The position numbers were made by a program, and so were the translations under genes. A stretch of 14,048 bases of DNA, taken from a virus (taxonomy: Duplodnaviria > Heunggongvirae > Uroviricota > Caudoviricetes). The notes beneath the pieces are model-generated. The model was not told the origin of the DNA and made no database searches. It saw nothing but the letters and a program-made list of their open reading frames with translations. Below, one piece after another: positions 6,789 through 12,872 of the stretch. The stretch lies in IMG/VR virus record IMGVR_UViG_2582580966_000010; one strand, written 5' to 3'. The first letter of the stretch is position 1. Every line of letters starts with the position of its first letter.

Positions 6789-6796
6789 GCCCATAG

Positions 6797-6823
6797 AAAA
6801 GCCCCTCCGGAGAGGGGCTTTTT
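6797..6823. terminator. Bidirectional intrinsic terminator downstream of the TerB operon
   Basis: AAAA-GCCCCTC-cgga-GAGGGGC-TTTTT: a perfect 7-bp GC stem with an A-run and a T-run on either side. Confidence 0.55.
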
Positions 6824-7063
6824 ACAGTGGTAGTGTAGACAATTTTGCATGGTGCCGGGTGCCTCCCGGTGAGTTCAGTATCAGCACCTGAACCCGCACA
6901 GAAAGGATAAGGGTCGGTGACAAAACACCAGTTGCTGATTGCCCCTCCGCACAGGGGGATTCACCATGCCAGTTTCTTTTAACAAACTCCCCGCAAACCA
7001 GACAACAGTCAACCGCCTGAATTGTGAGGTATTTAAAAATTTCAACGGGTAACTGATACCCTG

Positions 7064-7835: not shown

Positions 7836-7912
7836 TGGCGCGTTGTACTGGATTCGAACCAGTGACCGATTGCTTAGAAGGCAATTGCTCTGTCCGGCTG
7901 AGCTAACAACGC
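7836..7912 (-). tRNA. tRNA-Arg (anticodon UCU)
   Basis: Hand-folded cloverleaf: acceptor GCGTTGT/ACAACGC, D-arm GCTC...GAGC, anticodon stem ATTGC/GCAAT with loop CTTCTAA, T-arm CTGG-TTCGAAT-CCAG, then discriminator and an encoded CCA. Confidence 0.8.
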
Positions 7913-7928
7913 AGGATACAGATAATGA

Positions 7929-8002
7929 ACCGCCTTCGGGGATCCGAACTCCGCGCAACCAGCTTCGAAGGCTGGCGCTCTTTCCTGATGAGCTAATGGC
8001 GG
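7929..8002 (-). tRNA. tRNA-like gene, Arg (anticodon UCG), imperfect and without encoded CCA; possibly degenerate
   Basis: Cloverleaf with anticodon stem CCAGC/GCTGG and loop CTTCGAA. The acceptor stem has one A-A mismatch and the T-stem one A-C mismatch. The 3' end is followed by TCA rather than CCA. Confidence 0.5.
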
Positions 8003-8009
8003 TATGTGA

Positions 8010-8085
8010 TGGTGGCCCTTGCTGGATTTGAACCAGCGACCTGGCGATTATGAGTCGCTCGCTCTCACCACTGAGCTAAAGGGCC
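8010..8085 (-). tRNA. tRNA-Ile2 (anticodon CAU, ileX/ileZ-like; a Met assignment cannot be excluded from sequence alone)
   Basis: Sequence GGCCCTTTAGCTCAGTGGTGAGAGCGAGCGACTCATAATCGCCAGGTCGCTGGTTCAAATCCAGCAAGGGCCACCA. The anticodon stem-loop matches E. coli ileX-type tRNA as remembered. Perfect acceptor stem and an encoded CCA. Confidence 0.8.
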
Positions 8086-8113: not shown

Positions 8114-8827
8114 TCAATAATCAAGCCCTTGCCTGGATACATATCTGTCTGGCGGGAAGCCATAATAGCGGTGAAATACAGAAATAAAGTAGGACCTGCT
8201 TGAATAACCGCATTTTTCTGCTATAGCCTGTCCATATCCATGCCGGGAACATAACATATTTACAGCAACACGCATCCGCTCTTCCAGCAACAAGCGACTG
8301 AACATGCCCCCTTCATTTTTCAGTTTTGTCTTTAACAAACTCTCACTCATATGCAACTGTAGAGCAATCGCACAAAGCGTCCAGCTTGCTGATATATCTG
8401 TCTGAATTATCGCCCTGACTTTGGCACTTATGCTGGATAAACATCCACTTAAAAACAATGACATCCGTTCATCTGTTTCAAACAGAGACAGGCAGGCCAT
8501 CATAAGAAACATATCCGTGGCCTCTCCGGAAAATCCCTGGCTGGTAATTAAAGCCGCAGCCAACGCAGGATTGTTGGGTTCCAGCAACAGGTAAAGCGGA
8601 ATGTCAGTCAGACGAGTCCTCGTCAGCTTATGCTGACTTTCCAGATATTGACTTACGACGGATTCGCTTATATCGACAATTTTAACTTTGCCATAATGCA
8701 TAAGGAAAAGCTCCCTGATGCATTTGGTGGCCAGAACAACTGAGCCTGGCTTAAGTGACAACGTATCCTTTTCAAGAAAAATATTAATTGGGGAGCAAAC
8801 CATGATAACTGAACAGACAACAGCCAT
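8114..8827 (-). CDS. AraC-family transcriptional regulator (AppY-like, no sugar-binding domain)
   Basis: 237-aa, AT-rich ORF. The C-terminal dual HTH region (WTLCAIALQLHMSESLLKTKLKNEGGMFSRLLLEERMRVAVNMLCSRHGYGQAIAEKCGYSSRSYFISVFHRYYGFPP) is typical of the AraC family, and the N-terminus MAVVCSVIMVCS resembles AppY. Confidence 0.75.
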   Translation of the reverse strand: MAVVCSVIMVCSPINIFLEKDTLSLKPGSVVLATKCIRELFLMHYGKVKIVDISESVVSQYLESQHKLTRTRLTDIPLYLLLEPNNPALAAALITSQGFSGEATDMFLMMACLSLFETDERMSLFLSGCLSSISAKVRAIIQTDISASWTLCAIALQLHMSESLLKTKLKNEGGMFSRLLLEERMRVAVNMLCSRHGYGQAIAEKCGYSSRSYFISVFHRYYGFPPDRYVSRQGLDY

Positions 8828-11640: not shown

Positions 11641-11913
11641 TTACCTCCAGATGCGTTGCTGGAATGTGCGGGACGGACGCGGTGGGCGTTCAGAGTAAGG
11701 AAGCCTGACGGAGATTATCCAGTGACGATAATCGAGGCTGAGAGCTTTCTTAACCTCGAACCCGCGCCTGCGGTAAGAATGAATCAGCCATTCGGCCTGT
11801 TCTTCAGTACATGGTGGGTGTTGGTACCAGTCGGTTTTAAATGCGTGTGAACGCCGCTCATGCCGGATGGCAAGGTCGGTATCAGAATTGTGAAATTTGG
11901 TTTTGTGCGCCAT
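11641..11913 (-). CDS. Hypothetical 90-aa protein, in the position of Qin rem
   Basis: ATG at 11913. Its stop lies 1 nt before the DUF968 start. Assigned by position only (between hok and the ydfU-like gene). Confidence 0.45.
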   Translation of the reverse strand: MAHKTKFHNSDTDLAIRHERRSHAFKTDWYQHPPCTEEQAEWLIHSYRRRGFEVKKALSLDYRHWIISVRLPYSERPPRPSRTFQQRIWR

Positions 11914-11985
11914 CTGTTTTCTCTGCTGGCGCAGCAGGTGTCAGGTGTTCAGGCTGACGTGCGAATTGTAAACCAGAATGCCAGG

Positions 11986-12012
11986 AAAAAACAAAACCCG
12001 CCGAAGCGGGTT
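11986..12012 (-). terminator. Intrinsic terminator of the hok transcript
   Basis: Minus-strand RNA: AACCCGC-uucg-GCGGGUU followed by UUGUUUUUU, about 70 nt downstream of the hok stop. Confidence 0.6.
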
Positions 12013-12080
12013 AAGTGCGGGTGCGTTGAGGATGCCTGACACATCAGAGGTGGCGAGGGATTTCTCCCCCGCCAGGTCTC

Positions 12081-12236
12081 TTACTCCTCAGGTTCGTAAG
12101 CTGTGAAGACAGCGACCTCCGTCTGGCCGGTTCGGATTCGTACCTCGCAGAGGTCTTTCCTCGTTACCAGTGCCGTCACAATGACGGTTAAACAGATGAC
12201 GATCAGGGCGATTAGCATCGCCTTTTGCTGCTTCAT
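12081..12236 (-). CDS. hok: Hok-family type I toxin (identical in sequence to HokD/RelF as remembered)
   Basis: Hand translation gives MKQQKAMLIALIVICLTVIVTALVTRKDLCEVRIRTGQTEVAVFTAYEPEE (51 aa): one TM helix plus a periplasmic tail with conserved Cys. Confidence 0.9.
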   Translation of the reverse strand: MKQQKAMLIALIVICLTVIVTALVTRKDLCEVRIRTGQTEVAVFTAYEPEE

Positions 12237-12293
12237 AGCCTGCTTCTCCTTGCCTTTCGGCACGTAAGAGGCTAACCTACGTGTGTAGAGCAT
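12081..12293 (-). CDS. mok: mok-like overlapping reading frame (same frame as hok, upstream start)
   Basis: In-frame upstream extension MLYTRRLASYVPKGKEKQA running into hok, as in hok/mok/sok loci where mok translation is needed for hok translation. Confidence 0.55.
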   Translation of the reverse strand: MLYTRRLASYVPKGKEKQAMKQQKAMLIALIVICLTVIVTALVTRKDLCEVRIRTGQTEVAVFTAYEPEE

Positions 12294-12447
12294 AGATATG
12301 GCCTCAGATTAATGTTAAGCGTCTTGCCGGACGCGTAATGTTAACTGGGGCTTTTCTCTATCTGCCTTTTGGTGTTCATGCCTGAGACAGATAGCCTCAA
12401 GCACCCGCTGCAATTCTACTTAACTCTCCTTTTCCCGCAAACCGTTT

Positions 12448-12531
12448 TTATCCCCAGCGGCAAATCGAATACACCACCAGCGCCACCGCCATCGCAATTC
12501 CTACCGTTGTTAATGCTTCAGGCCAGGTCAT
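12448..12531 (-). CDS. Candidate 27-aa hydrophobic peptide (MTWPEALTTVGIAMAVALVVYSICRWG)
   Basis: ATG at 12531 preceded by GGAGGA at 9-nt spacing. Single predicted TM helix. Below the ORF-track cutoff; found by hand translation. Confidence 0.3.
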   Translation of the reverse strand: MTWPEALTTVGIAMAVALVVYSICRWG

Positions 12532-12626
12532 CGTAAAATATCCTCCACGCTTATCAGTCCGTTCCGCTCCAGATAACTCATCGCCTTATCCGGTAATTTG
12601 CAGTCTGGCTTCGCTTTCCTCAGTTG

Positions 12627-12872
12627 CTAGGTTAACTGCTTTACCAGCATGGTTAACTCATCGACCAGACGCTGATATCCCACTGGTTTGTATTCATGCA
12701 ATTTACCGGCTGGCTCTGCTGCCAGCGATACCAGTGCGATTTCCAGAACAGCAATATCCATCTTATATGTGCGGATGATGTCATGGTCGATTGTGCCCGG
12801 TATGCACAGTCTCTGTGCTTCAATAGTCTCCTCTGCGTGAGCTATTAACTGCTCTCTGGTAAAAGTCGTCAT
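12627..12872 (-). CDS. Hypothetical 81-aa protein, paralog of the upstream 55-aa gene
   Basis: ATG overlaps the stop of the upstream gene (ATGA). SD GAAGGGG inside the upstream gene. Shares the N-terminus MTTxTxE and the motif IALxSLxAEP with the 55-aa protein. Confidence 0.5.

Follow-up and report, generated by a model that had tools for sequence, protein, structure and literature searches.

The toxin gene hok lies on the minus strand at 12081-12236 of the window, by which we mean the whole stretch of viral DNA analysed here, 14,048 nt in length. Translation from 12236 to 12081 gives a protein of 51 residues, MKQQKAMLIALIVICLTVIVTALVTRKDLCEVRIRTGQTEVAVFTAYEPEE, and the Shine-Dalgarno (SD) sequence GGAG is found upstream of its start, at 12246-12249. 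The Pfam family HOK_GEF (PF01848) recognizes this protein with 81.6 bits for a cut-off of 22, the whole profile being covered. RefSeq holds the identical protein as 'HokD' under WP_000813254.1, also in a K-12-like strain. In a second strain with the same accession the hok coding sequence is 98-100% identical to that of the window. Only two synonymous bases separate hok of the window from K-12 hokD.

The longer mok reading frame (minus strand, 12081-12293, 70 codons) opens at an in-frame ATG at 12293, continues as a mok-type extension of 70 amino acids through hok and ends at the common stop. It matches phrog_251, 'MokW-like host killing', with 113 bits, and its layout is that of K-12 mokC/hokC and of 933W mokW/hokW. 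The mok SD, GAGG (minus strand, 12302-12305), precedes the mok ATG by 8 nt; both this SD and the mok AUG are invariant among 67 distinct relatives. By analogy with the hok/mok/sok family, hok would be translated through mok, the two being coupled.

Downstream of hok, the transcript has an intrinsic terminator at 12012-11995 of the minus strand: a stem of 7 bp, five of them G-C pairs, followed by the tail TTGTTTTTTC in a T-run that reaches approximately 11986. Four of its pairs change on both sides among the relatives. Several weak Rfam matches, among them rsmX and CRISPR repeats, all fall on this terminator hairpin and stay below threshold.

On the other side, the -10 box of the hok promoter, TAGAAT (minus strand, 12413-12418), is conserved to at least 95% in 77 related loci and sits 6 nt upstream of a G at 12406. 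As this G is the common start of the Rfam model, of the alignment to plasmid R1 and of the tac element described below, we take it as +1. The predicted -35 region, TTTGCGG (minus strand, 12435-12441), is a weak match to the consensus, 16-17 nt away from the -10 box; its TTnGC positions are at least 94% conserved across the 77 related loci, and the sequence further upstream diverges. From +1 down to the terminator, the predicted full-length hok mRNA has about 418 nt (minus strand, 11989-12406). Its minimum free energy (MFE) is -173.1 kcal/mol with a z-score of -6.59, and none of 100 shuffled sequences folds as well.

An initial annotation, made from the letters of the DNA, had described an intact Hok identical to HokD/RelF, accompanied by a mok frame and a terminator, and in this it was right. 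The functional unit is nevertheless wider than the interval 12081-12447 that it had marked: it extends from the terminator (11995) and the fbi element (12019-12031) to the hok -35 region (~12441).

Regulatory folds and conservation of the hok mRNA

We name the elements tac, fbi, ucb and dcb as they are defined in the model of plasmid R1 (PMC9841398). The tac element, GGGUGCUUGAGG, makes up the predicted 5' end of the mRNA (minus strand, 12395-12406) and is invariant in the 67 relatives. Its 3' partner is the fbi element, CCUCAACGCACCC, at 12019-12031 of the same strand. In the unconstrained MFE fold the two form a helix of 12 pairs with a single bulge. This helix is 100% paired in the 67 relatives, where two pairs pass from G-C to G-U and no double compensatory changes occur. 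The ucb or anti-SD element, GCCCC (minus strand, 12347-12351), is likewise invariant in the relatives; in the same unconstrained fold of the full-length RNA it pairs with the mok SD, which is thereby sequestered.

A candidate for dcb, UAGCCUCUU, is present at 12266-12274 of the minus strand. It is complementary to the mok SD, with which it could form a GAGGC/GCCUC duplex of -9.3 kcal/mol, and it overlaps the sok -10 box of the other strand. In R1, a sok-promoter mutation lies in dcb (PMC9841398), and we infer from these likenesses that 12266-12274 corresponds to dcb. When the RNA is truncated at its 3' end, the MFE fold keeps a local 5' hairpin, which resembles the described metastable structure, and leaves the mok SD closed. 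The tac/ucb 'open' form comes 1.5 kcal/mol above this minimum, and the SD/dcb pairing is not formed. As the truncated folds keep the SD closed, the refolding step of activation rests on the R1 literature.

The leader is also recognized by Rfam model RF01794, 'sok', at 12231-12406; the match reaches 117.1 bits (E = 1e-26), the gathering score being 59, and covers all model positions (1-157 of 157). It is on the strand of hok and stops at the hok AUG. The match thus attests to the conservation of the leader but, taken alone, does not show that an antisense transcript exists. A match to isrK, seen at a permissive threshold, was discarded: it scores 27 bits, for a gathering score of 50.

Loci with the same toxin were collected from IMG/VR, where 80 viral contigs encode an identical Hok. 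The full leader is present in 77 of them; two carry the relE junction known from K-12 and one has another truncation. The leader of the window is the commonest allele in this set. In the alignment of 67 distinct relative sequences, 96.0% of the cells are able to pair according to the structure derived from the window, compared with 34-42% when the partners are slid. Double-sided changes affect nine pairs, where shuffles give 4.0 +/- 1.6 (only one shuffle in 500 reaches nine). The structure itself came from one member of the alignment, and the relatives are so similar that most pairs never vary. Upstream of +1, conservation sets in abruptly near -40, and it stops just past the terminator; with such sharp borders, the cassette is a separate, self-contained unit of about 450 bp. 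Of 5426 complete E. coli genomes, 3833 contain 80% or more of the segment 11960-12450. The matching places number 12,608 in all, with a median of two per genome and a maximum of ten, and 68 phage records contain at least 80% of the locus.

The sok antisense gene

On the plus strand, opposite the leader, we located the antisense gene that the initial annotation had failed to find. Its -35 box, TTGCCT (12250-12255), and its -10 box, TAACCT (12273-12278), are separated by a spacer of 17 nt, and all three are identical in 933W/Sp5. The alignment to 933W is gap-free between the mok start and the 3' end of sokW, by which sokW (AF125520, 58664-58734) maps to 12285-12355 of the window's plus strand. 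With the coordinates transferred in this way, the predicted Sok has 71 nt: a single-stranded 5' tail of 15 nt, a long hairpin at 12300-12352 and the end UUUU(CUCU). Its predicted fold has -28.6 kcal/mol and a z-score of -5.40, with none of 200 shuffles folding as well. It spans the mok SD and start codon and is complementary to the mok translation-initiation region. Its tail-plus-hairpin form corresponds to that of R1 Sok. When an R1-type plasmid locus is aligned, TTGCGC and TATCCT fall at the positions of the -35 and -10 boxes of the window; we take these to be the R1 sok boxes.

Among the 67 relatives, the -35 box reads TTGCCT in 54 and TTGACC in 13, and the -10 box TAACCT in 54, TAATCT in eight and a related variant in five. 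The -10 box TAACCT agrees with the consensus at three positions out of six, and both hexamers of the hok promoter are poor as well. A generic sigma-70 scan of 11900-12700, with a limit of four matches out of six per hexamer, called neither the hok nor the sok promoter, both being below this limit. The only promoter that it proposed (minus strand, 12318-12289, TTAACA-18-TATGCT) is inside the leader and at chance level, with one call for 0.6 expected, and was rejected.

The closest experimental counterpart is hokW-sokW of Sp5 (Takada et al. 2021, PMC8621323). There, HokW is toxic and is neutralized by sokW expressed from its own promoter; a mutant of the sokW promoter loses the protection, which sokW in trans restores; sokW RNA is detected by northern blot; and the system depends in part on RNase III and Hfq. 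Judging by primers YO-421/YO-422 of that work, the mutation probably turned the sense heptamer TAGGTTA into CCGGCTC, thus altering the antisense -10 sequence TAACCTA (PMC8621323). The heptamer is unchanged in the window.

Could hok persist here without a working sok, silenced by the pairing of its mRNA ends, by absent transcription or by Sok acting in trans? The half-matching -10 box and the silence of the generic scan would allow it, and the several related copies often found in an E. coli genome could supply the Sok. However, this promoter does not differ from the one of sokW, which drives a detectable antitoxin RNA and unmasks toxicity when mutated; the -35 and -10 boxes show conservation among the 67 relatives, whereas bases a few nucleotides away vary freely; and the hairpin of Sok and its U-run are intact. 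We hold this explanation to be very improbable.

We conclude that the window carries a complete type I toxin-antitoxin locus hok/mok/sok, sok included, of the hokW-sokW kind found in prophages; judged from its sequence and from its characterized relatives, we put the probability of this reading at about 0.9. All the sequence elements are present, intact and conserved. The suspicion that sok might be missing finds no support: promoter and predicted RNA lie inside the interval that had been flagged. The same goes for its corollary, that hok must be silenced by other means or be dead. A clear sok promoter and its target are found, and this makes the locus a standard hok/sok locus, as that annotation had itself foreseen for such a case.

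Known relatives and the arrangement in K-12 Qin

Over 442 nt the locus is 93.7% identical to hokW-mokW-sokW of 933W/Sp5 (AF125520), where mokW, hokW and the 71-nt sokW are annotated. The elements follow each other in the same order and with the same spacing, and the sequences of the sok promoter, tac, ucb and fbi are identical. Both antisense RNAs have the extended hairpin, and mok is in frame with hok in both loci. The toxins have 46 of 51 residues in common; the five differences are at the C-terminus, FTAYEPEE in the window and FVDYESEK in HokW. After fbi the two loci differ, the stem-loop of the window's terminator having no aligned counterpart in 933W. Their placement differs too: the cassette of the window is in a nin region, that of 933W near the right end.

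The hok/mok/sok (parB) locus of plasmid R1 obeys the same grammar. In R1 as in the window, the mRNA begins with the tac sequence GG(G)yGCUUGAGGCU, complementary to a 3' fbi, an AGCCCC ucb faces the GAGG of the mok SD, AAGGAGAAG precedes the hok AUG, and the sok boxes stand at aligned positions (TTGCGC/TATCCT in R1, TTGCCT/TAACCT in the window). The Hok protein of the window is distant from that of R1, to which its close relative HokW is 44% identical (PMC8621323). In R1, moreover, mok and hok are read in different frames, while those of the window are in frame; the Sok hairpin of the window is about 18 nt longer; and the R1 locus is plasmid-borne, with proven post-segregational killing. The chromosomal hokC(gef)/mokC/sokC locus of K-12 shares with the window an in-frame mok, a stop common with hok and a closely alignable leader. 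Its annotated sokC begins 9 nt within mok and extends upstream. This locus reaches only about 80% identity to the window, its sokC, of 59 nt, is without the extended tip of the hairpin, and an IS186 is inserted 20 bp downstream of hokC.

The features of the hok/mok/sok family that show in a sequence, namely the Hok toxin, mok with its SD, an antisense Sok with its promoter, the predicted tac/fbi pairing and the Rfam match, are all found at the window locus. Compared with hokW-sokW it represents a different allele, of a known kind. Its discovery value is small: it is a textbook cassette, with a close relative annotated and studied, and is present in most E. coli genomes.

The window itself is a mosaic segment of a lambdoid prophage, of which the best phage record covers at most 36%. 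The cassette is in its nin region, upstream of the DUF968, RusA and Q genes. Upstream of hok, the open reading frames can be assigned to phage families without known function (phrog_660, phrog_3323 and phrog_1714); downstream of it come a phrog_1212 protein, a homologue of DUF968/YdfU, RusA and antiterminator Q and, beyond Q, a gene for an AraC-family regulator (8114-8827), three tRNA genes and the STnc100 sRNA. The K-12 proteins RelE and RelB, compared by tblastn with the whole window, give chance matches only (E = 2.4, the best, and 3.9). Hence the observation that a relBE pair of the Qin type is absent, and that unrelated small genes stand upstream of hok instead, is accurate.

The interpretation attached to it, of a hok that was kept while its relBE neighbour went missing, has to be reversed. 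K-12 hokD (relF), in the relBEF operon of Qin, encodes a Hok protein identical to that of the window and has a similar position in its prophage, upstream of a ydfU (DUF968) homologue; the DUF968 block of the window is 84.8% identical to Qin ydfU. The hokD block itself is 98.1% identical to the window over 11987-12250 only, from the terminator to 14 nt before the hok ATG. The homology thus ends on the first base of the sok -35 box, the only base of this box that K-12 keeps. Everything upstream of window position 12250 is occupied in Qin by relE and relB: K-12 hokD is devoid of the mok start, sokT, the sok -10 box, ucb, tac and the hok promoter. In K-12, rem comes between hokD and the genes on the ydfU side; the window has none of relB, relE and rem. 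In the relBEF arrangement hokD directly follows relB-relE and has no leader of its own, whereas the window possesses the full leader of 170 nt. Since the homology stops at 12250 and relE-relB stand in the place of the leader, K-12 has the truncated form and the window the complete one. The relBE-hokD arrangement of K-12 is derived as well as truncated, its leader and sok having been lost to relE.

These relations bear on annotation. RefSeq records name only 'hokD' at such loci and omit mok and sok. Because the Rfam 'sok' model is on the hok-sense strand, automatic annotation either misses the Sok gene or places it on the incorrect strand, and this is probably why the antisense gene had looked missing. 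K-12 'hokD', being a truncated form, is a poor reference for the family.

Expression, possible roles and variation of the Sok tail

Expression, processing and biological role at the window locus are inferred by analogy with the characterized relatives. A weak promoter (-10 TAGAAT, 12418-12413) would give a stable hok mRNA of ~418 nt, in which the 5' tac pairs with the 3' fbi and ucb holds the mok SD. As a result of these pairings, the full-length RNA is proposed to be neither translated nor bound by Sok. Slow trimming of the 3' end would remove fbi, and the RNA would refold and expose the mok SD and start codon. Meanwhile, the stronger antisense promoter (plus strand, 12250-12278) would produce the unstable 71-nt Sok. 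Its single-stranded 5' tail would pair across the mok initiation region and block translation of mok and of the coupled hok, and the pairing of Sok with the hok mRNA would trigger cleavage by RNase III. Once Sok is no longer replenished, Hok would be made and the inner membrane depolarized. The supply could cease when the prophage is induced, when the element is lost or when transcription is shut off.

Such a locus could help lysis and phage release, promote retention of the prophage or exclude other phages. For hokW-sokW, sokW disappears after mitomycin C and HokW appears before the endolysin (PMC8621323). Deletion of hokW-sokW halves phage release, and upon induction the presence of the locus is associated with an earlier growth arrest and a twofold release (PMC8621323). 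On the other hand, the intact chromosomal hokA, hokB and hokC, tested earlier, gave no post-segregational killing (summarized in bioRxiv 10.1101/2025.08.07.668861), and therefore a 'complete' locus need not be one that kills upon loss.

In the same vein, the locus of the window might be an inert relic like chromosomal hok of K-12: transcribed and regulated, unable to kill, and hitch-hiking in its prophage. The prophage may indeed be cryptic, its 14-kb window being mosaic and covered by no phage record beyond 36%. Yet the locus has suffered no IS insertion, truncation or frameshift, and its regulatory elements are conserved under apparent constraint. Moreover, expression of the HokD peptide is listed as toxic (bioRxiv 10.1101/2025.08.07.668861), and the 94%-identical hokW-sokW has an induction phenotype (PMC8621323). 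We consider inertness unlikely.

As to which function prevails, R1 hok/sok is reported to exclude phage T4. In line with this, the locus could serve mainly as an abortive-infection or exclusion device, fired when a phage shuts off host transcription, and not for retention or lysis. Its cassette has the sharp borders of a moron, at about -40 and just past the terminator, and hok genes are four-fold enriched in prophages (bioRxiv 10.1101/2025.08.07.668861). The same survey, however, sees no enrichment of hok near defence systems (bioRxiv 10.1101/2025.08.07.668861), and the only direct data on the subfamily favour help in lysis and phage release (PMC8621323); the sequence itself does not discriminate between the roles. 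We consider exclusion as the main role unlikely, too.

Independently of function, the aligned relatives differ in a peculiar manner: nearly all of their variation is concentrated in nucleotides 106-128 of the mRNA, a stretch of 23 nt at 12301-12279 of the window. In the hok-sense direction this hotspot consists of the spacer between the mok SD and AUG and of mok codons 2-5. Read on the opposite strand, it comprises the 5' tail of Sok together with the short stretch that separates the sok -10 box from the Sok start. Pairwise diversity per site is 0.30 in the hotspot and 0.014 at third-codon positions of hok, about 20 times less; selecting the loci by an identical Hok biases the latter figure toward low values. 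This selection does not touch the difference from the remainder of the leader: the other non-coding parts have diversities of 0.03-0.08, except for the terminator segment with 0.13. The hotspot exists as 17 alleles in this alignment and as 19 among the 120 loci of a second scan.

Three pairs of contigs from the same genome allow co-resident copies to be compared; one pair has the same allele and two have different ones, numbers that carry no statistical power. In the literature, we found nothing specific on diversification of the Sok tail or on cross-talk between hok paralogues beyond the statement that chromosomal Sok RNAs of K-12 do not repress R1 hok. The hotspot could result from neutral drift, through a lack of constraint where an antisense RNA and its target co-vary automatically. 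Tentatively, and against what we consider the better odds, it may instead reflect selection for distinct specificity alleles of Sok. If true, Sok alleles would act like 'incompatibility groups', in that co-resident or incoming prophages would not neutralize each other's toxin. In the 5' tail of Sok and mok codons 2-3, the window has the allele CTCTAC and 933W has CTGAAC.

Variation and structure of the Sok region

Among otherwise near-identical hokD/W cassettes in the alignment of 67 distinct relatives, variation is concentrated on both strands at window positions 12279-12301. This hotspot overlaps the 5' single-stranded tail of Sok, the spacer between the Shine-Dalgarno sequence (SD) and AUG of mok, and mok codons 2-5. 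Its diversity per site reaches 0.30, against 0.014 at the third-codon positions of hok, and 17-19 alleles were counted. No variation is seen in the mok SD, the mok AUG and the sok promoter boxes that flank the hotspot.

In the hairpin of Sok and of its target in the hok mRNA, sokT, there is a GC-rich tip of ~16-18 nt (12316-12336) that is extra in comparison with R1, K-12 hokC and the Rfam consensus; it reads GCGUC-UUGCCG-GACGC on the Sok strand. Because of this tip the window's Sok is 71 nt long, whereas sokC has 59 nt; R1 Sok measures ~64 nt. The tip is present in 62 of the 67 relatives. The remaining five carry instead a different and short hairpin, three of whose pairs are changed on both sides.

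The Rfam family RF01794, labelled 'sok antitoxin', matches the window at 12231-12406 on the minus strand. It is built on the hok-sense strand and the last bases of its consensus are the hok AUG, so that an Rfam-based annotation would place 'sok' on the wrong strand, with a length of 176 nt. At homologous loci in RefSeq records hokD alone is annotated; mok and sok are absent.

The Tyr47 codon of hok

The codon for Tyr47 of hok, TAC, is followed by G (12095-12098, minus strand, within CUUACGAA). The resulting UACG motif, invariant in 67/67 aligned relatives, fits the context of A-to-I editing by TadA, for which the predicted recoding would be Tyr to Cys.

Surroundings of the cassette

A 27-codon ORF (12448-12531, minus strand), whose 3' end lies just upstream of the hok promoter, encodes the hydrophobic peptide MTWPEALTTVGIAMAVALVVYSICRWG. 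Searches of Pfam and PHROG with this peptide gave no match. The ORF is kept, with substitutions, in 14 of the 80 related contigs, and is likewise conserved with substitutions in Sp5/933W, whose homology with the window starts at the ATG of this ORF; the 933W record leaves it without annotation.

Directly downstream of the hok terminator lies a mosaic junction, at about 11930-11995 (compared regions 3001-4156 of L003 and 2128-2379 of L002, two comparison sequences). Strain CREC-U1 and phage vB_EcoS-689R5 have ~665 extra bp here, including a gene for a hypothetical protein of 130 aa; in K-12 Qin, rem occupies the junction after the hok terminator, and 933W diverges from the window immediately after fbi, the 3' element of the hok mRNA (12019-12031, minus strand).

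Further features are found elsewhere on the minus strand. A match to the STnc100 sRNA scores 145.6 bits (6789-6998), and a gene for an AraC-family regulator of 237 aa (8114-8827) stands between the antiterminator gene Q and a cluster of three tRNA genes, Met(CAT), Arg(TCG) and Arg(TCT) (7836-8085). In Stx phages a tRNA cluster adjoins Q, and the cluster of the window is similar to it.
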